In this document: positions 1-9,210 of the stretch, one piece after another
How the letters are laid out: each line of letters starts with the position of its first letter
Position numbering within the stretch: position 1 is the stretch's first letter
Source: an uncultured Methanoregulaceae archaeon
GTDB lineage: Archaea > Halobacteriota > Methanomicrobia > Methanomicrobiales > Methanospirillaceae
Reading direction: 5' to 3'
Assembly (NCBI GenBank): GCA_963815395.1
Contig: CAWFHC010000002.1
Coordinates: 70,432-134,431, forward strand
DNA length: 64,000 bases
Made by a program: the position numbers and the translations under genes
Notes under the pieces: model-generated
The model's input: only the letters and a program-made list of their open reading frames with translations
What the model was told of the DNA's origin: nothing
Databases searched by the model: none

Positions 1-28
1 ATTTTTTTTGCAGCAGTCCTCTTTCCTT

Positions 29-811
29 TTACCCTGCATTCAGGGATTCGGACCCGGTTTCAATTGCAGCTGCGCAACAGTGATCGGGTCCGTTCATGAA
101 CTGCCAGACAAAAAATGGTGGAAGTGACGTCCGGAATTTCAGTGAGCCACACGGGGATGAATGCTCCTGAATAAGATCGGATGTATCGGTATCTTTCATC
201 CCTGAAAGAGTTTCACCGGTTGTCTTGAGAATTGCTTCTTTTAACGCCCATATCCTGAAAAAAGCCTGGTATTTCCGGGCAGGTTCAATTCTCTGCATGA
301 ACGCTTTTTCAGCAGGTGTCAGAATATATTCTGCAATATCATGGTAGTGATACGAGGGATCCATTCTGACTACATCAACACCAATCCGCTGCGTCCGGGT
401 GATTCCGATGATGACCATTTCGCTGGTATGGGACAGATTAAAAGACACACCTGCATGACCCTCGTGAGGAACCAGTTCGGGCTTACCATTCACTCCGGTT
501 GAAAACGATACCTCCTGTGGGTCGCGATGGGTATAGTTACCCAGAATAATTCTCAATAACCCATGCCGGAGGACATACTTCCGGCTATCGGCATCGTTCC
601 TGAATAAAGACGCTGCATATCGCTCTTCCCCGCTGGTGATGCCCGACAGGACTTTGCGGTGAAGGTCAAGGTTTCGGTAAAAGGCTGACCAGACGTGGAC
701 CCTGTTTTTTTGTAAACAAGGGGGAAATTCTGCTGTTTGCAGCGCACCTTCCCCCCCGAGACCAAATACACTATACGGCAGGCAATCCTGTAAAACCTTA
801 TCCATGAGCAT
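29..811 (-). CDS. sfp: Sfp-type 4'-phosphopantetheinyl transferase
   Basis: Motifs NGKP, FNLSHT, IGVDVV and FFRIWALKEAILK. The start is uncertain (835/811/805) and overlaps the stop of the upstream NRPS-like gene. Confidence 0.92.
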   Translation of the reverse strand: MLMDKVLQDCLPYSVFGLGGEGALQTAEFPPCLQKNRVHVWSAFYRNLDLHRKVLSGITSGEERYAASLFRNDADSRKYVLRHGLLRIILGNYTHRDPQEVSFSTGVNGKPELVPHEGHAGVSFNLSHTSEMVIIGITRTQRIGVDVVRMDPSYHYHDIAEYILTPAEKAFMQRIEPARKYQAFFRIWALKEAILKTTGETLSGMKDTDTSDLIQEHSSPCGSLKFRTSLPPFFVWQFMNGPDHCCAAAIETGSESLNAG

Positions 812-3488
812 CTGCCATTTTGAGTGACTCTTCAATTTTTTTTGCCGTTATCTTACCCAGTGGCTCCCGGTAAAGGGTAATATGATCTCCGGGAATTTCG
901 ACGAGGATGGTTTTCCCTGTTATGCATGAGTTCCAGCCTCTTGCCGGATCACCGGGATAGAATTCAGAATCCGGCCCGGTAGAAAAAAGAGTGATGTCTC
1001 CGGAAAATATCCGGGGCCTGTAAATGCTGATTGCCCGGATCTGTGTTATTACCAGCATTTTATGCTTTTCCGGTAAGGTAGAGATCCAACCCCGCTGAAC
1101 ATCAGTTATATATTCGACATCCGATCCGGATGCAGGAAGAGCCGGGGAACCTTTTAACACGAGTAAAACCTGGGAAAAGCCTCTGACACTCCTGACAAAA
1201 AGTGAATAGAGCAGACTGTCAGGATCTTTTTGCAACCGGTTGTTCAAAATGGAGTAAAAATTATAGCCGGCAGTAATCAGTTTATTTGAACCCTGCCCCC
1301 GGGTCATATCGTAAAGTCTTTTTAAAGGTGCCGGTAAAGACATATCAATTATCCCCAGAAAAGTTACCGATTCCCCCCGGCTCTGGAGCTGGCAGGCAAG
1401 ATCAAACGCATAGATCGCCCCACCGGAAAATCCCAGCAGATGATAGGGCCCTTCTTTCTGGACCGTTTTTATGGCTTCAATATATTCCCGGGCAGCTTCT
1501 TCAACGGTGAGGACCGCCTTCTCCGCAGGTTCCAGTCCCCGTGCCCGGATACCGAAAACCGGCCGCTCGTGATCGAAAAACCGGGAAATATACTGATATT
1601 CCTGTATCCATCCGCCAAGCGGATGAAAACAAAATAACGGTGGCAGCGTGCCGTTTCCCCGGATCGGGACAATGAGCGGGTGATACCGTGAAATTTTTTC
1701 ATCTTTTCGGGCAATCTGAATCGCCTGTTGACGGATTGTCGGATACAGATAAATCATATCCGGCGGGAAAGTAACGTGAAACGCTCTCTGGATCTTGATA
1801 AGAAGTTCGATCGCTGTCAGCGAATTTCCCCCTCCACGGAAAAAATCGTCATCGGGAGACAGGGACTCAACATTCAGGATCTCACTCCAGATCTGCATGA
1901 TTTTTTCTTCAATTCGGGATACCTGCGGGGATATTCCAGGAACGGCTCCTTCATGAGTCTGTTCATCTTTGAATGTGCCGTTATGGTAACGTTCAGTGCC
2001 CGCATACCGAAGGAGTTTACCGGTGGGCCCTTTGGGGATTTCTGCTACAAAATAGATCCTCCGGGGGACCTTGAACTGGATAAGGCGGTCAAGAAGATAC
2101 CGCCGGAGATCGTGTTCTGTTACTGTTTCATCTGACAGTACTACCATGGCAGCAACATCCTCTCCCAGGACAGGATCATCAATCCGGAAGGCCATTACCT
2201 CCCGGACTCCGGGATATGACACAAGGACCGCATCGATCTCCTGGGGAGAGAACTTTTCCCCGCCCTTATTGATCAGTTCTTTTTTGCGACCGGTGAGGAA
2301 GAGATACCCTTCATTATCAAGATAACCGATATCACCGGTCCTGAAATAACCGTTGGTAAAAGCAGATACATTTTCATCCGCATCCTCATATCCGCTGAAA
2401 ACAACGTCTCCCCTGATGGCAACCTCACCGTTCTCGAAATTCCCGAGAATAGTGCCGTTCTCATCCATGATAACCAGGGACCCGACCATGGGAATCCCGG
2501 CTGAACCTTCCTTATGGGGCATATTGATAGTGATGACAGGCGATTCTGTCATCGCATAACTCTCAATCACCGGGACTCCGAACAGTCTTTCGAGTTCCTT
2601 CCGGGCATGTTCGGGCAGCGGTGAGGACGTCGACCTGATATACCTGAGTGAATGATCTTTCAGTTCATCAGCAGGGACTTTTTTGAGTTCATTCAGGATA
2701 CCTTTGTGATGTGCCGGTGCAGCACAATAAAAAGTCGGGCGGTATTTTTTAAGGAGGGGAAGAAAATCCGGGGAGATATAATCCCTGGCGCAGACAACCG
2801 TCCCTCCACCCAGCAGCGGGGCAAGCAGGGTGTGGGTGATCCCGAGAATATGAAAATGGGCTACGATGTGAAGGCTGATGTCCTTATCTGAAAGGTTCAA
2901 CCGTGAAAAATAGGAATATGCAGCTTTGCAGAACTGCTTCTGGGAAAGAGGAACGATCTTGGGGACAGATGTCGTACCTGAGGTCTGCATGACAATGACC
3001 GTATCATCAGGCCGGGCAAACAGGGCTTCTTCTTTTTTCTCCGGTATACCGGCGCCAATTTCAAAAATACCGGCCTTATCCGCTGAAGGAGTTATTTCGA
3101 TGACCGGAATATTGCGTGACAAAGCCACAGCCCTTGCTGCGGTCTCCTGGTTTTTTTGAACGATAATTGCCCTGACCCTCAGTCGGGAAAATATTCCCTG
3201 GAATTCGTCATCCTTGTACTGGGGATTCAGCGGCGTGTGAGTGAATCCTGCCATGATCCCGATACCCAGCACAGCTGTTTCAGGACCCCCGGGCATAATC
3301 ACCGCAATCCTGTCATTCCGGCCAAAACCCAATGAATTTAACGTTTCTATGACAAGAAGAACCTGTTTCCGGAGATCACGGTACGAGAGTGGTTGTTGAC
3401 CGGGAGATTCAATTGCAGGATGGTCAGGATCCTGATTTCCATTAAATATCAGCTCTTTGATGGTATGAGGTTCAGGTATCTCAATCAC
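798..3488 (-). CDS. NRPS-like enzyme, adenylation-thiolation(PCP)-thioesterase (A-T-TE), 896 aa
   Basis: A domain: TSGTTSVPK, ESYAMTE, YFRTGDIG, GRKKELINKGGEKFSP, PKGPTGKLLR. PCP: DDDFFRGGGNSL. TE: FCFHPLGG, GFSGG (GxSxG), C-terminal GDH. No condensation domain. Confidence 0.93.
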   Translation of the reverse strand: MIEIPEPHTIKELIFNGNQDPDHPAIESPGQQPLSYRDLRKQVLLVIETLNSLGFGRNDRIAVIMPGGPETAVLGIGIMAGFTHTPLNPQYKDDEFQGIFSRLRVRAIIVQKNQETAARAVALSRNIPVIEITPSADKAGIFEIGAGIPEKKEEALFARPDDTVIVMQTSGTTSVPKIVPLSQKQFCKAAYSYFSRLNLSDKDISLHIVAHFHILGITHTLLAPLLGGGTVVCARDYISPDFLPLLKKYRPTFYCAAPAHHKGILNELKKVPADELKDHSLRYIRSTSSPLPEHARKELERLFGVPVIESYAMTESPVITINMPHKEGSAGIPMVGSLVIMDENGTILGNFENGEVAIRGDVVFSGYEDADENVSAFTNGYFRTGDIGYLDNEGYLFLTGRKKELINKGGEKFSPQEIDAVLVSYPGVREVMAFRIDDPVLGEDVAAMVVLSDETVTEHDLRRYLLDRLIQFKVPRRIYFVAEIPKGPTGKLLRYAGTERYHNGTFKDEQTHEGAVPGISPQVSRIEEKIMQIWSEILNVESLSPDDDFFRGGGNSLTAIELLIKIQRAFHVTFPPDMIYLYPTIRQQAIQIARKDEKISRYHPLIVPIRGNGTLPPLFCFHPLGGWIQEYQYISRFFDHERPVFGIRARGLEPAEKAVLTVEEAAREYIEAIKTVQKEGPYHLLGFSGGAIYAFDLACQLQSRGESVTFLGIIDMSLPAPLKRLYDMTRGQGSNKLITAGYNFYSILNNRLQKDPDSLLYSLFVRSVRGFSQVLLVLKGSPALPASGSDVEYITDVQRGWISTLPEKHKMLVITQIRAISIYRPRIFSGDITLFSTGPDSEFYPGDPARGWNSCITGKTILVEIPGDHITLYREPLGKITAKKIEESLKMADAHG

Positions 3489-3682
3489 TTAGGAAAAAAA
3501 AGGGTTGTATGAGAATATTAAATGTATCCAATCCGTGTCCGTTCTCTGGTAAAAGTCAATAAATCTGCGAATAATTATGGTTTAAAAAAAATGAACCTGT
3601 TGATTCTCTCCATCATATCGGTATTTTACCTTGTGACGTCTGATGAACCCGGGCAATATCCCCACGCAAAAGAGCACTCGCA

Positions 3683-4282
3683 TCATTCCCGCCGCTCACC
3701 ATGGAGCACACCCATGACCCCCAGCGCCGAATGAACGGGTTTGCGCTCAATCCCGAAATGATAATGTCGTCCCAGGTAATCGAGAAGTGCCGGGTCAGGG
3801 AGGCCGCCGATAGGGGGAATATGCAGTTCCATCTCAATCCGGCGGATACCTGCGAGATCTTCCGGCACGATCTGCCATTCAGCCCCTTCACAATCGCATT
3901 TCAGGAAATCACATCCTCCGGCCATCTCAATGATTTTATGAAGCGGGCAGGTAGGTGAAATGATTTCGCAATCATCCCAACTGATTTTTTTTGGATGCCC
4001 GTCACCAAGCGCTCCCTCAATAATACGGACGGGGACGTCGTTTAACCGGATATTCTGTCGGAGCAGGGAGACAGTCACCGGCTCAACCGCAACGACGTGG
4101 TGAGAGCAGCGGGACGCACGGATGCAGAATGCTCCTACGTTTGCACCGATATCAATGACACGGTCATCAGGACGCATGTCATCGAACTGGTATTCCGGCA
4201 CATCAAAGATCTGGCGGTACCCGGTGTCCTGAAGATGAAATCTCACCCCGTCAGATGAAGTAAAAAAAGATGATTTCTTCAT
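3683..4282 (-). CDS. FkbM family SAM-dependent methyltransferase
   Basis: VIDIGANVG, AVEP and FLKCDCEGAE motifs; likely start MKKSSFF at 4282. Confidence 0.88.
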   Translation of the reverse strand: MKKSSFFTSSDGVRFHLQDTGYRQIFDVPEYQFDDMRPDDRVIDIGANVGAFCIRASRCSHHVVAVEPVTVSLLRQNIRLNDVPVRIIEGALGDGHPKKISWDDCEIISPTCPLHKIIEMAGGCDFLKCDCEGAEWQIVPEDLAGIRRIEMELHIPPIGGLPDPALLDYLGRHYHFGIERKPVHSALGVMGVLHGERRE

Positions 4283-4522
4283 AGAGTCACTTCCCCGGGG
4301 CGGGTTGTGGAACCTCATAGCTGCCAGATGCCCGGTGCTGACGGAAGCCGGCGCCTTTACCCGTTGGGTATGCTCTGAGAACACATTCAACAGCGCGGCC
4401 CACTGTCATAGTGAAGAGAACAAAGATGGTTTGGTTCATTACTCTATGGGTTACTTGTAGGAACAACTTCAAAAGATCCCTGTCATGGTTATCAGAACAT
4501 CATGTGTGCATGCCCGGAAATT

Positions 4523-5317
4523 ATGGGTCTGAAAGATCAGGTGCGGGGGAGAATCCCTGACCATGCGCTTAGCCACCTTTCTGACCATTTCGATGTGATC
4601 GGCGATATTGCTGTTCTCTCGTTGTCTCCTTACCTCAGTGGGTATGAGAGGACCATCGCGCAAGCCATAATCTCGGGGCGCCGTTCCATCAAAACGGTAC
4701 TCAACAAAATTTCCCGGCTTGATGGGTGCAACCGTACAGCCTGCTATGAGGTTCTCGCGGGAAAAGATACCGTTACCCTCCATCATGAGTATGGGTATGC
4801 GTACCAGCTCGATATAGGCACTGTTTTTTTCAATCCCCGGCTTGCAAGCGAGCGCAAACGGGTCACTGACCAGGTAAAGTCCGGTGAACGAATCCTGATA
4901 CCCTTTTGCGGTGTGGGACCCTATGTGATTCCTGCAGCTGTCCGTGGGGGGCATATCATCGCTGTAGAGAAGAATCCGGAAGCATATCTCTGGTTTCTCA
5001 GGAATATACACCTGAACGGTGTTGAAGATCGTGTCACTCCCCTTCAGGGCGATGCCTTTGATATGTCACTTCTCCCGGTTTGTCCGTTCGATCGGGCGAT
5101 CATACCGACCCCCTATGGGATGGATGCGATCTTTGATGTTCTTGCATTGCGGGTAAAATCCGGGGGCATGATCCATTTTACCACGTTTAAAAACCGGGAC
5201 CAGGCAGATTCTCTTGCCGGGGAATTTGCCCTGAAGGGATTTGAAGTGGTTGTCCAGCGACGGTGTGGTAATGTAGCGCCGGGCGTGAGCCGCTGGGTAT
5301 TTGATCTGGTGAAGTGA
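4523..5317 (+). CDS. Trm5/Tyw2 (Met-10-like) class I SAM-dependent tRNA-modifying transferase
   Basis: FDVIGDIAV, FFNPRLASER, PFCGVGPY, VEKNPEA and N..LNGV match the Trm5/Taw2 family. Confidence 0.82.
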   Translation: MGLKDQVRGRIPDHALSHLSDHFDVIGDIAVLSLSPYLSGYERTIAQAIISGRRSIKTVLNKISRLDGCNRTACYEVLAGKDTVTLHHEYGYAYQLDIGTVFFNPRLASERKRVTDQVKSGERILIPFCGVGPYVIPAAVRGGHIIAVEKNPEAYLWFLRNIHLNGVEDRVTPLQGDAFDMSLLPVCPFDRAIIPTPYGMDAIFDVLALRVKSGGMIHFTTFKNRDQADSLAGEFALKGFEVVVQRRCGNVAPGVSRWVFDLVK

Positions 5318-5446
5318 CCGGTGTCTGATCAAAATCGGGCGGGAATGGCAAAAGAAATTTCTTTACGATAAAAACTGCTCTGGAGAAACAGACATGAACA
5401 GAGTGTTCGCACCCAAACCATGAAAATCGTAATGTATACGATAGAA

Positions 5447-5540
5447 CCCCGCCTCAGGGCCTCTCCGAGGCACGGCGGGCCAGGAATTTTTTATTTTTGG
5501 CTACTGATCCGCCGCGGGGGCGTCCCATCGGGGGCGGCGG
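5447..5540. repeat. Dispersed GC-rich two-hairpin repeat (family C), copy 1
   Basis: CCCGCC..GGCGGG hairpin, T-rich spacer, then CTGATCCGCCGCGGGGGCGTCCCATCG. Matches reverse complements at 20921-21017, 17728-17802 and partly 63473-63520. Confidence 0.7.
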
Positions 5541-5607
5541 TGTCCATCATAAAAGAAAAATACAGATGGTATTCCTTCATCATGCCTGAATTTTTTGATT
5601 TTCATGG

Positions 5608-5870
5608 GAAATCATGCTCTTTTAGAAAACTAAAAGAGGGGAACCGGTATCGGATAGCGATGGGGCCACGGGCGCTCACCGCCTCGTCGGGGTTCGCCCC
5701 GTGAAGCTGGCTGTGGATCGTACTTCGGCAGTGAAGAGAAAAATCCAACTGTCATGGGGTCAATGAGGGGCTTACCCCCTCATGCTGCCTCCCCCTTTAG
5801 GGGAGAGAGGGGGTCACCCTCGCAATTTCCATGCCAGCTCAAAAAACTAAAAAGGGATTTCTACAGAGCC
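5608..5870 (-). mobile_element. MITE family A, copy 1 (one end degraded)
   Basis: Reverse-complement homolog of 29520-29793. The right end GATTTCTACAGAGCC is an intact TIR; only GAAATC survives at the left end. Confidence 0.8.
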
Positions 5871-6479
5871 ATAAAAACCTATTGTTTTTTACGGGCATCG
5901 CCTCTTTTCATGCAGGGAGAACAAAAAAAAAGAAAATGAAACGAACACAAAAAAAATGCTCTGGAAGAAATATTATTCAGAGGAAACCGTTGCCTGACCC
6001 AGGGATAGTATCATCTCAAGACAAGAATCTATCTTGTTGAGTTCGCTGCGCCATCTGAGGAATTGCTGACAGTTACCATAGATGATACCGCCAACACATT
6101 CTTTATCACAGGTATCACAGGGTTTCGCTGTCATTAATCCCCATTATTCCTTTTATTGTTTTATATTCACGTGATCCATCGGGTTATATCATATAACCAG
6201 ATGATTAGATAAAAGATCCCGGTACAGTACGGGCATTTACCGGCTATAAAGTTTGTCTCCGGGTATCTTCCTTCAGACCGGGGAACCGTATCCCGGTTAA
6301 CCTGATTGTTTTTCGGAGACGGTCATTACCCTGCTTTACCTGCAAACCTATTTTGTATACAAAATAATAATATAGATTTAAGGACTCGCGTGGAATTTTT
6401 CCACTCGCAAAAATAACTTTCATCCTTTTATGATACGATGAACGCCAAAAAAGCAACGGAGAAACCGAACTGAGGTGAA

Positions 6480-8261
6480 ATGAAACATTTTTCCGATATG
6501 TCCGGGAAGTATCAGATCCTGTTACTGTTTGTGCTTTTTCTCGTCATAGTGAGTGCGGGATGTTCTGAACAGACTGATACCACCACCCTGAACCCGGCAC
6601 CTGTGACTCCCCCGCTCCAGGCAAAATTTGTTCAGGGAGATATCATCGCAAAGACAGCATCTTCTTCTGAATCCTTGTGGATTATCCTGAAATACGATTC
6701 GCAGACCGGAACATACGAACGGGCTGCCGTGCAAAAAAAACCTGACGGACGCTGGTTTCGGAATAATGAAAGATCAGAATTTGCTGATCGTACCCTGACA
6801 GAAAAGATCTACACGGTAAAAGCAGGTCACGTCAGTTCACTTTCCCTGGTACCGGTAGAAACGGCTCTACCGGTTCCCTTGACTACGCAGGGAAAGATTA
6901 TTCCGTCAACTTCCCGGACAGCTGCTGCCCGGTACCTGCCAAAACCGGCTCCGGCCTCACAATTCACTGCCAGTCCCCTGCAGGGTATTGCCCCTCTGAC
7001 TGTTCAGTTTTCAGACCAGTCGGTTTCTGCAGGCACCAGCGCATATGCGTGGGATGTCAACATGGATGGCAAACCAGAATATACGACGCAAAATCCACGG
7101 CATACGTATCCGGCACCCGGAAAATTCACCGTAAAACTAACGGTAACCAATGCATCGGGAAGTGACAGTGAAATTAAAACTGATTTTATTACTGTATTAA
7201 ATGCTGAACCCTCAGTATCGACAGGAACCGGAACCTTCGGGGCAGAATCGAATCCGACAGGAAACCCTCTTGGTGGCGGTACAGGCTATTTACGGATAAT
7301 CAGCGAAACAGACCCCCCGGTGAAGTATGTGGTATCGAGCAGAGAACAGTTGATAACTGCCCTGAAGAATGCAAAGTCCGGAGAAGTGGTATTCGTAAAA
7401 GGCAATGCAGCGATCGACATGACCGGAATGGCGAGTATAACAATTCCTTCTGGTGTGACGCTGGCCAGTGACCGCGGGTTGATCGGTTCTTCCGGAGGGC
7501 TGATAAAACGCACCAAAAACCTGAATGGCAACTACGAAGAGCCCATGTTTATTGCCGGTGGAGATAATGTCCGGGTAACCGGTTTACGGCTCCAGGGCGA
7601 GATGTATGCCCAGGATTACGGCAACAAGAAGGGAGAGACCTCCCAGCAGTATTATCTCGTGGGTATTTTTGCCGAGAACAGGAAGGGTTTTGAAGTGGAT
7701 AACTGCGAGCTGTATGGCTGGGCGTGGGCCACGATATCGCTGAGAGAAAACACCGATGCTCCGATTCCTTTCATTCACCACAATTACATCCACCACAACC
7801 AGGCCCGTGGTGAGGGGTATGGAATCTGCATGTATGGCGGAAAAGCTCTCATTGAAGCCAACCTCTTTGACAATAACCGTCATGACGTAACCGGTGCCGG
7901 AATATCCGGTGAGAGTTATGAAGCACGGTATAACCATGTCCTTGGTAATGGCAACCCAATCGGCGCTTCCCATTTTGATGTTCATCAGGATGAGGAGACC
8001 GGGACAGGATATGCAGGGAACGTTTACAAGATTCACCATAACACAGTCGAACCATCTGTTCCCATGGCTGTCGGAATCTGCGCCATTCCCCAGACAGGTG
8101 TGTATGTCGATCACAATATCTTCAAAGGTTCTATTACCGATTCTGAGGGCGGGGTGCCCATATTCCAGGCCGGAGGCAAAGGTAAGATGTTCGTGACGGA
8201 CAATTACTGGAAAGATGAACTCTATGCCGGTGATGAGATAGTGTGGTATCTCGATCAATAG
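6480..8261 (+). CDS. Surface lipoprotein with PKD domain and right-handed parallel beta-helix (pectin-lyase-like) domain
   Basis: Hydrophobic signal ending VSAGC. PKD signature FTASP..G.APLTVQFSD..YAWD..NP.HTY..PG.FTVKLTVTN. Asn/His-rich repeats IHHNYIHHN, IEANLF, IHHNT. Confidence 0.8.
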   Translation: MKHFSDMSGKYQILLLFVLFLVIVSAGCSEQTDTTTLNPAPVTPPLQAKFVQGDIIAKTASSSESLWIILKYDSQTGTYERAAVQKKPDGRWFRNNERSEFADRTLTEKIYTVKAGHVSSLSLVPVETALPVPLTTQGKIIPSTSRTAAARYLPKPAPASQFTASPLQGIAPLTVQFSDQSVSAGTSAYAWDVNMDGKPEYTTQNPRHTYPAPGKFTVKLTVTNASGSDSEIKTDFITVLNAEPSVSTGTGTFGAESNPTGNPLGGGTGYLRIISETDPPVKYVVSSREQLITALKNAKSGEVVFVKGNAAIDMTGMASITIPSGVTLASDRGLIGSSGGLIKRTKNLNGNYEEPMFIAGGDNVRVTGLRLQGEMYAQDYGNKKGETSQQYYLVGIFAENRKGFEVDNCELYGWAWATISLRENTDAPIPFIHHNYIHHNQARGEGYGICMYGGKALIEANLFDNNRHDVTGAGISGESYEARYNHVLGNGNPIGASHFDVHQDEETGTGYAGNVYKIHHNTVEPSVPMAVGICAIPQTGVYVDHNIFKGSITDSEGGVPIFQAGGKGKMFVTDNYWKDELYAGDEIVWYLDQ

Positions 8262-8619: not shown

Positions 8620-9210
8620 TCATACCGGGAAAATCCGGCTTCCATACACTTCGTTGATGACCTGCCCCATACCAATGTAGAGTGCAAGACCCCCCGCGAC
8701 GAGGCCAACGAGCCCCCCGATATTCAGGATCAGGGTATTGCCGGTGAGCTGGGCTGTAACAAGGAGCAATACCAGGATTACAACGGCCATTAACGTAATC
8801 TGCAGTATCCGGTGCATTTTTAATGTACAGATAAAAAGCCCGACTGCAAAAATTCCCCATACGCTTAAAAAAGCTGCCAGTTCTACCGGTTGGGGCGCTT
8901 TTGCCAGAGTGAGAGCCGGGAGGAGCAGCAATGTGGCAAAGGAGATCCAGAAGAAACCGAAGCTCCCAAAGGTGATCATGCCAAACGTATTGTTCTTCTT
9001 CCATTCCATGATACCAACGATAACCTGGGCAATTCCCCCATAAAAAATTGCCATCGCAAGGATGGGACTTCCAAGAGCAGTAAGTCCCGCATTGTGGAGG
9101 CTCAGTAATATCGTTGTCATACCGAATGCGCACAGGCCCAGAGGTGCAGGGTTTGCTGTGTTATCGTTCAGGAAAAGGTTATTCCGGTTCTTTTCTTCAA
9201 TGATTTCCAT
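8620..9210 (-). CDS. satP: GPR1/FUN34/YaaH (SatP) acetate uptake transporter
   Basis: Signature ANPAPLGLCAFGMTT, FYGG.AQ and NTFG; about six TM helices. Confidence 0.92.
   Translation of the reverse strand: MEIIEEKNRNNLFLNDNTANPAPLGLCAFGMTTILLSLHNAGLTALGSPILAMAIFYGGIAQVIVGIMEWKKNNTFGMITFGSFGFFWISFATLLLLPALTLAKAPQPVELAAFLSVWGIFAVGLFICTLKMHRILQITLMAVVILVLLLVTAQLTGNTLILNIGGLVGLVAGGLALYIGMGQVINEVYGSRIFPV

Follow-up and report, generated by a model that had tools for sequence, protein, structure and literature searches.

We analyzed a 64,000-nucleotide (nt) stretch of DNA, hereafter the window, from an uncultured Methanoregulaceae archaeon (assembly GCA_963815395.1, contig CAWFHC010000002.1, positions 70,432 to 134,431; G000:C2:70432-134431 in our data set). 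The host genome, that of a peat-dwelling methanogen, comprises 2.38 Mb in 22 contigs, is 85% complete, and encodes McrA. Two genes lie on the reverse strand near the left end of the window. One encodes a protein (P0001) in which an adenylate-forming ligase, or adenylation (A) domain, is fused to a peptidyl carrier protein (PCP, or thiolation, T) domain and a type I thioesterase (TE) domain; the other encodes an Sfp-type 4'-phosphopantetheinyl transferase (PPTase). We read the pair, listed in Table 1, as what is probably an autonomous bicistronic, translationally coupled cassette.

Table 1. Features of the two-gene cassette and its upstream border, in window coordinates
Feature	Position	Strand	Basis and remarks
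A-PCP-TE gene, 896 aa	798..3488	(-)	GTG start 3488-3486, TAA stop 800-798; protein P0001; Pfam
Adenylate-forming (ANL) ligase domain, residues 1-505	1974..3488	(-)	Pfam, alignment to AtAAE3
Carrier (PCP) domain, residues 528-589	1722..1907	(-)	Pfam PP-binding 9e-15, EntF PCP-TE match
Type I thioesterase domain, residues 616-896	801..1643	(-)	Pfam Thioesterase 6e-24
Sfp-type 4'-phosphopantetheinyl transferase, 258 aa from ATG 805	29..805	(-)	Pfam, motifs
TATA-box-like TTTAATATT	3514..3522	(-)	~30 nt upstream of GTG start; read from sequence
T8 run	3584-3591		Downstream of the FkbM-like methyltransferase gene, which lies upstream of A-PCP-TE

The open reading frame (ORF) of the larger gene is uninterrupted from its GTG start through all 896 codons, and its product matches the Pfam families AMP-binding (residues 18-367, 2e-59), AMP-binding_C (417-491, 1e-12), PP-binding (528-589), and Thioesterase (616-874). 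We checked the motif codons one by one. The carrier motif GGNSL occupies residues 553-557 (Ser556, 1821-1823), the TE motifs GFSGG and GDH occupy residues 686-690 (Ser688, 1425-1427) and 867-869 (His869, 882-884), and HIL of the HFHILG motif corresponds to residues 213-215. SYAMTE (310-315) and KELINKGGEK (403-412) were also located in the translation. An earlier note on this DNA, made from the sequence alone, had described an intact ORF with these core motifs, and the ORF calls, Pfam matches, and codon check all confirm it. The same note had the PPTase gene overlapping the stop codon of the larger gene. The overlap stands, but the start needed correction: within the second ORF (29-835, reverse strand), which carries the ACPS and AASDHPPT_N families in the Sfp-type layout, the likely initiation codon is the ATG at 805-803 and not the TTG at 835. 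Together with the TAA at 800-798 this gives the arrangement ATGGATAA, an overlap of 8 nt that recurs in homologues such as the orthologue on locus L008. The TATA-like element suggests that the larger gene has its own promoter, with a short or leaderless mRNA. Scans for bacterial-type promoters and terminators returned matches at the level of shuffled sequence only, as expected in an archaeon, and an Rfam scan of window positions 1-6500 gave only chance-level matches, with no riboswitch upstream.

We then examined the carrier and release domains. Residues 506-896 had their best sequence matches in the PCP-TE region of EntF and in AB3403 (1e-25 to 1e-26), and an AlphaFold2 model of this region (pLDDT 81.7) retrieved AB3403, EntF, a bifunctional epimerising/cyclising TE, Pks13-TE, and the TE of fatty acid synthase (FAS-TE) in Foldseek searches. 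The TE triad consists of Ser688, Asp715 (1344-1346), and His869. About 150 residues, containing the lid region, separate Asp from His, a segment roughly 50 residues longer than what we take to be typical of type I TEs. Ser556 and all three triad residues were invariant in 17 full-length homologues, down to 43% identity in the T-TE part. Ratios of nonsynonymous to synonymous substitution (dN/dS) against orthologues were 0.08-0.10 for the A domain, 0.25-0.32 for the linker and PCP, 0.13-0.17 for the TE, and 0.31-0.34 for the PPTase; the PPTase value against locus L025 was set aside because that record is frameshifted. The A-PCP-TE protein is an intact fusion under purifying selection.

GVD at residue 142 and WALKEAILK at residue 186 place the PPTase in the Sfp-type (group II) class; its best NCBIfam match was HetI, below the cut-off of that model. 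It is the sole ACPS-family match in the host genome, just as the TE of P0001 is the only TE there, and no Condensation domain was matched in this 85%-complete genome. Adjacency, co-occurrence, and translational coupling suggest that the PPTase modifies the PCP encoded next to it. Elsewhere in the genome, an 85-aa ORF (L090:6772-7029, reverse strand; G000:C22:104771-105028) is a candidate second carrier, with a weak PP-binding match (25 bits) and an IDSIG serine motif. A gene for a 337-aa PP-loop ATPase (Asn_synthase/tRNA_Me_trans-like) lies directly downstream, and the surroundings also include a 558-aa AMP-binding ligase and an NAD-synthase-like gene. This small protein could be a second client of the genome's only PPTase.

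To place the A domain, we compared it with all PDB sequences. The best matches were AtAAE3 (2e-75), LsOCS (5e-74), and Pcs60 (4e-67), followed by FadD13 (5e-54) and then by 4-coumarate, MenE, and MatB ligases, and the best chain deposited as a nonribosomal peptide synthetase (NRPS; 3wvn) reached only 1e-37. The top NCBIfam models were FadD7-family and long-chain ligase models, all under their cut-offs. All core motifs of the ANL superfamily are present and place the domain in that superfamily: TSGTTSVPK at residues 169-177 (2958-2984), YAMTE at 311-315, RTGDIG, GRKKELINKGGEK at 400-412, and PTGK ending at the catalytic Lys491 (codon 2016-2018). A maximum-likelihood tree was built from 79 A domains; in place of characterised AAE3, Pcs60, or NRPS reference sequences, we relied on the ranking of PDB matches by E-value and on the pocket signatures that basal members of the clade carry. 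In this tree, P0001 fell inside a Methanoregulaceae clade (support 100) whose sister group is formed by stand-alone ligases of Ca. Methanomethyliaceae, and both groups were nested among bacterial proteins of stand-alone, A-T, and A-T-TE form, which together make up a larger clade. The basal bacterial members of the clade that holds P0001 (support 99) keep the full AAE3 oxalate signature, and the outgroup comprised NRPS A domains together with the other ligases of the host genome. These results support the assignment of the A domain to the oxalyl-CoA synthetase (OCS; AAE3/Pcs60) lineage rather than to the amino-acid-activating NRPS lineage, as the earlier note had anticipated from motifs. The note had also likened the protein to the fungal enzymes AtrA and TdiA and to Ralstonia RalA, and this analogy holds for the A-T-TE architecture but not for the type of A domain; because the A domain of P0001 is not of the NRPS type, the likeness is confined to architecture.

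The substrate pocket was compared with that of AtAAE3, in which oxalate is bound by V215-H216, C288-S289, A313-M314, H319, and K500; H319 contacts oxalate directly, and S289 and H319 are conserved only among OCSs (PMC8905533). The HMMER alignment of the two proteins was free of gaps, including between YAMTE and V318, and the codons were verified. The equivalent residues of P0001 are I214-L215 (2844-2849), T287-S288 (2625-2630), A312-M313 (2550-2555), V318 (2535-2537), and K491, with His213 as the gate histidine. Thus Ser289 is retained as S288, while His319 and His216 are replaced by V318 and L215, so that the size-setting residues (I214, T287-S288, and A312-M313) are kept and both histidine positions have become hydrophobic. 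Because of these two replacements, oxalate is an unlikely substrate, and the suggestion of oxalate in the earlier note, which had named it beside other small carboxylic or 2-oxo acids, is not supported. The pocket points to a small monocarboxylate other than oxalate as the most likely substrate, such as a C2-C4 aliphatic, 2-hydroxy, or 2-oxo acid.

The same positions vary across the family. The basal bacterial members and a Methanolinea A-T-TE protein (L040) keep FH[IV]HG, [CS]S, and TEA[AS]HQ, whereas the whole Methanoregulaceae clade has lost the two histidines, and it is precisely there that its sequences are hypervariable, with IL, LL, AA, GM, GL, GT, TM, SA, or GW at residues 214-215 and PV, PN, GP, GL, GE, AF, or AY at residues 317-318. 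In one Methanoregula subgroup the gate histidine is also replaced, with LDTGFG in place of HFHxLG. This pattern suggests that specificity differs among members of the family. The L040 protein (L040:7941-10541, forward strand; 866 aa, from an uncultured Methanolinea sp. metagenome-assembled genome, MAG) is 36% identical to P0001, keeps the entire AAE3 oxalate signature (LFHVHG, SCSA, and YGMTEASHQ), and has an ABC exporter gene upstream; judged by this signature, oxalate loading would suit it better than P0001. An Sfp-type PPTase match (G102:C3:43412-43642) would lie about 9 kb from this gene if contig C3 is the contig of L040.

Because the A-T-TE architecture is mostly bacterial and fungal (judging from ESM Atlas neighbours, at the level of architecture only) and one homologous contig is labelled Dehalococcoidales, we considered whether the locus is bacterial contamination or a chimeric join, the outcome that the earlier note had named as fatal to its claim. 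The GC contents of the A-PCP-TE and PPTase genes (0.488 and 0.486) match that of the genome (0.486), and their synonymous codon usage is typical of the host (z = 0.22 and -0.05, respectively, against 726 long ORFs). Other Methanoregulaceae MAGs show the same gene order, including the archaeal TYW2 gene, on contigs of 838 kb and 1.05 Mb, and in peat and soil metagenomes from separate studies (runs X1 and X3) contigs span the nitroreductase/PPTase and PPTase/A-T-TE junctions. The Dehalococcoidales-labelled contig (L027, CAYGXY010000210.1, 8.7 kb) encodes an A-T-TE protein with 67% identity, and since a neighbouring gene on it is 85% identical to a gene on the host contig, it is probably a mis-binned Methanoregulaceae contig. 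The host-like composition, the shared gene order, and the junction-spanning contigs therefore make contamination or chimerism very unlikely, to the point that we give an artefact almost no weight.

We next investigated how the family is distributed. All full-length relatives with at least 46% identity came from Methanoregulaceae/Methanomicrobiales MAGs or metagenomes, and DNA carrying the locus was present in peat, wetland, soil, and freshwater-sediment runs from 14 studies; no RNA run was listed among the carriers. Among 100 sampled genomes of the host family, only four contained an A-T(-TE) match at E <= 1e-60. Two of these four belonged to the 12 other species of the host genus, in which four single-contig genomes had no match. 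The family is patchy in Methanoregulaceae. ACPS-family matches, which were taken as PPTases, occurred in all five family genomes with an A-T(-TE) protein versus 18 of the 96 without, and a PPTase was likewise present in five more genomes, to which related loci had led. With such matches in 23 of 101 sampled genomes of the host family, the view expressed in the earlier note that carrier systems are rare in archaea has to be softened here: they are less rare in this family than it implied.

The gene neighbourhood was analyzed by clustering the neighbours of the locus itself and of 16 related loci. The PPTase was the only recurrent neighbour, adjoining the A-T-TE gene in 9 of the 13 clustered loci of the Methanoregula clade. 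In the window, an FkbM-like methyltransferase gene (3683-4390) lies about 190 nt upstream of the A-PCP-TE gene, and a nitroreductase gene lies about 150 nt downstream of the PPTase gene, just left of the window. Both recur in five to six related loci, all of which are close synteny relatives, and on another contig the methyltransferase gene is directly adjacent to the nitroreductase gene with no cassette between them. The cassette occupies at least three unrelated chromosomal contexts: between these two genes, as in the window; upstream of PcrB-SpoU (L023 and L024); and next to stand-alone ligases and an NMT1-type ABC transporter (L012, L026, L031, and L036). We examined the methyltransferase, Pirin, TYW2, and the nitroreductase as pathway partners and rejected them, given that distant cassettes lack the methyltransferase and nitroreductase genes, which also adjoin each other without a cassette. 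The methyltransferase and nitroreductase are bystanders. A search for signs of mobile elements at the cassette borders found only short direct and inverted repeats at chance level.

Several loci differ in their surroundings. In L012, L026, L031, and L036, the A-T-TE and PPTase genes stand beside one to three stand-alone ligase paralogs; a conserved protein of 136-164 aa and NifD/K-like Oxidored_nitro genes recur in three to four of these loci, and a NifH-like gene was annotated in L012 only. In L010 and L030, where no PPTase gene is adjacent, three genes are inserted between the methyltransferase and A-T-TE genes; they encode a beta-keto-acid cleavage enzyme (BKACE), a permease of the TauE/SafE family, and a hexapeptide-repeat transferase. 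The interval between the methyltransferase and nitroreductase genes looks like a variable hot spot. A GPR1/FUN34/YaaH-family gene (acetate/succinate channel-like; window 8620-9210, reverse strand) lies 5 kb from the cassette and is not found in the 8-kb flanks of the orthologous locus L008. In an uncultured Clostridia MAG (L048:1128-13447, forward strand), the operon occurs as a tandem duplicate encoding A-T-TE proteins of 866 and 867 aa, whose genes overlap a fused DctM-type TRAP membrane gene and are followed by genes for TAXI-family (NMT1_3) binding proteins. A relative of P0001 is thus closely linked to organic-acid uptake in this MAG.

To reconstruct how the family evolved, we compared the histories of its domains. 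In the A-domain tree, stand-alone ligases (26 rows) were interleaved with fused proteins (24 rows). The stand-alone ligases are genuine genes, followed by unrelated genes, and are 57-70% identical to P0001 in the A domain; because they nest inside fused clades, the T-TE part appears to have been lost repeatedly. The T-TE parts of Methanoregulaceae are monophyletic (support 100), and their internal topology conflicts with that of the A tree. In P0028, for example, the T-TE part groups with that of P0001 and the A domain falls in another subclade. Approximately unbiased (AU) tests rejected the congruent groupings in both directions (p = 0.0003 with a 31-row A-domain set under LG+G4, and p = 8e-66 and 4e-22). 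Identities to P0001 were 58% in the A domain and 72% in the TE for P0028, compared with 70% and 67% for P0018, and per-window identities switch near residues 390-420. Since the A and T-TE histories are incongruent, A domains and PCP-TE parts seem to have recombined. The simplest history would be one acquisition of a bacterial-type A-T-TE gene, followed by paralog expansion, repeated T-TE loss, and A/T-TE recombination. The cassette would descend from AAE3-clade loaders of A-T(-TE) layout in bacteria, and its pocket residues would have diversified as the family expanded in Methanoregulaceae.

Methanoregula sp. UBA247 (L023:5036-10670 and L030:7980-10667) has three A-T-TE genes. Two of them are in tandem and encode sister T-TE domains joined to A domains from different subclades; no PPTase gene adjoins them, and a single Sfp-type PPTase is encoded on another contig. 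The closest orthologue in GTDB (L025:7932-10689, 85% identity) is split into ORFs of 718 and 204 aa, with several neighbouring genes broken as well, which looks like assembly indel errors rather than real decay.

Taken together, we propose that the locus encodes a self-contained single-module thiotemplate cassette, in which a small non-oxalate acid would be loaded onto the protein's own carrier and released through the TE. Judging from the sequence, we regard this as somewhat better supported than its opposite. The PPTase would first convert Ser556 of the PCP to the holo form. The ligase domain would then adenylate a small carboxylic acid and pass it to the thiol of its own PCP rather than to free CoA, after which the acyl group would move to Ser688 of the TE. 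Release would be non-hydrolytic, by self-condensation or oligomerisation, cyclisation, or transfer to an acceptor, and would yield a small specialised metabolite. For loading on the PCP followed by non-hydrolytic release in particular, the chances seem about even or marginally better.

Some of our observations speak against this proposal or weaken its support. The sequence of the TE gives no indication of its release chemistry, and the Foldseek matches of the model span hydrolytic, cyclising, and acyl-transferring TEs. The pocket argument depends on an alignment to a single crystal structure, and we chose the groups for the AU tests with knowledge of the trees. The stand-alone paralogs show that a carrier is not essential to this scaffold, which without one presumably uses CoA; P0001 may therefore perform some CoA ligation itself. 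Homologues lie beside uptake transporters in Clostridia (TAXI-TRAP) and in one Methanoregula subgroup (NMT1-type ABC); such importers hint that the family acts on an acid taken up from outside and not in classical secondary metabolism.

Three other explanations deserve comparison with the proposed cassette. The neighbouring genes bear on the possibility that the PCP-held acid is modified in trans and then hydrolysed off by the TE. NikP1-type A-T-TE enzymes provide a model for such a scheme, and the candidate tailoring enzymes would be the nitroreductase-family flavoprotein and the FkbM-like methyltransferase, or in some loci the BKACE protein or the hexapeptide acyltransferase. The proximity of the nitroreductase and methyltransferase genes and their recurrence in five to six related loci agree with this idea. 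However, this recurrence is confined to close synteny relatives, both neighbours are missing from L023, L024, L012, L026, L031, and L036, and the two genes sit side by side elsewhere without a cassette. In addition, a T-run follows the methyltransferase gene and the A-T-TE gene has its own TATA-like element. We therefore consider tailoring by neighbouring enzymes unlikely. A slightly smaller chance is left for P0001 still being, in function, an acyl-CoA ligase whose PCP-TE part serves as an accessory module for hydrolysis or editing, or is being lost. The repeated T-TE loss implied by the nested paralogs would fit such a role, as would the acid assimilation suggested by uptake transporters in other lineages. 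Against it stand a PCP serine (Ser556) and a TE triad that stay invariant in homologues with as little as 43% T-TE identity, the low dN/dS of the TE, and the retention of a dedicated, translationally coupled PPTase; loading an acid only to hydrolyse it would also presumably waste ATP in an energy-limited methanogen.

Oxalate loading, with oxalyl-S-PCP released or condensed by the TE, is the least probable of the three and, in our estimate, improbable. The closest solved structures are all OCSs, several homologues have been named 'oxalate--CoA ligase' by the Joint Genome Institute (JGI), and the AAE3 pocket residues Ser289 and Ala313-Met314 are conserved together with the catalytic lysine. Oxalate is also plausible in peat. 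Yet the OCS-only His319 is Val318 in P0001 and the pocket residue His216 is Leu215, and both histidines were lost across the Methanoregulaceae clade but kept in the bacterial relatives and in Methanolinea L040.

A broader and more speculative extension of the proposed cassette, to which we assign a rather small probability, is that the family represents lineage-specific, recombining minimal thiotemplate synthetases. A conserved PCP-TE part would be shuffled among AAE3-derived ligases with hypervariable pockets, and different strains would make different metabolites. If so, the products might include lactone- or furanone-type signals, oligoesters, or, in metal-poor peat, chelators of trace metals, and methanogens would possess a native natural-product system whose diversity is driven by the swapping of A domains.

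Methanogens are not counted among the producers of metabolites that depend on carrier proteins, and the hosts of this family are uncultured Methanoregulaceae known from metagenomes of peat, wetland, and soil, major sources of methane. Should the product be a signal, chelator, or inhibitor, it would bear on methanogen competition or nutrient acquisition. The diversified pockets and recombined domains point to functional evolution that is still under way. With ligases that range from oxalate-signature to hypervariable, with and without T-TE, the family forms a natural series in which to study how ANL enzymes switch specificity. The A-T-TE layout itself is common in bacteria and fungi, and NRPSs of a methanogen have been on record since 2010. 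The novelty lies in the combination of an OCS-lineage ligase as the loader of a self-priming single module, its restriction to uncultured Methanoregulaceae, and the hypervariability and recombination of the family. Our search of the literature on Methanoregula NRPSs, archaeal NRPS-like clusters, and methanogen NRPSs with PPTases found no description of this family.

Compared with known systems, P0001 shares the ANL core motifs, Ser289, Ala313-Met314, and the catalytic lysine with AtAAE3 (5IE0-5IE3), LsOCS (6QJZ), and ScPcs60 (8AFF). In contrast to P0001, which is fused to a PCP-TE part, those enzymes are stand-alone (about 510-545 aa in the OCS class), use CoA, and have no carrier or TE, and P0001 differs from OCSs in having Val and Leu for the OCS-specific His319 and the pocket His216. 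Bacterial A-T didomain and A-T-TE proteins of the AAE3 clade, such as those of L042, beside trans-AT/PKS genes, and of Clostridia L048, have an A domain of the same clade (30-37% identity) and the same ligase-carrier fusion, although several of them keep the His216 equivalent or both histidines and they occur in other hosts and contexts. To our knowledge, none of these relatives has been characterised. With the PCP-TE parts of EntF and AB3403, P0001 shares the PLFCxHP oxyanion region, the GxSxG nucleophile, and the positions of Asp and His, but those proteins are fed by a condensation (C) domain in a multi-domain line.

Non-reducing NRPS-like enzymes, namely quinone and furanone synthetases of the TdiA/AtrA/MicA type and bacterial RalA, resemble P0001 in being single-module A-T-TE enzymes without a C domain that depend on an Sfp-type PPTase. 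According to PMC9047271, their TE builds the product from two identical thioester-bound units. Their A domains are of the NRPS type and select aromatic 2-oxo acids, whereas that of P0001 is of the AAE3 lineage with a small pocket. Among archaea, the cases described so far are NRPSs of Methanobrevibacter, and our Methanosarcina acetivorans control genome also matches the Condensation, PP-binding, and Thioesterase families. Methanobrevibacter ruminantium M1 encodes the NRPSs mru0068 and mru0351 and the PPTase mru0514, which are thought to be of bacterial origin (PMC2812497), and thus likewise combines thiotemplate enzymes with a PPTase in a methanogen. Its NRPSs, however, are multi-module C-A-T proteins in a member of Methanobacteriales, whereas P0001 is a single module without a C domain, carrying a ligase-type A domain, in Methanomicrobiales.

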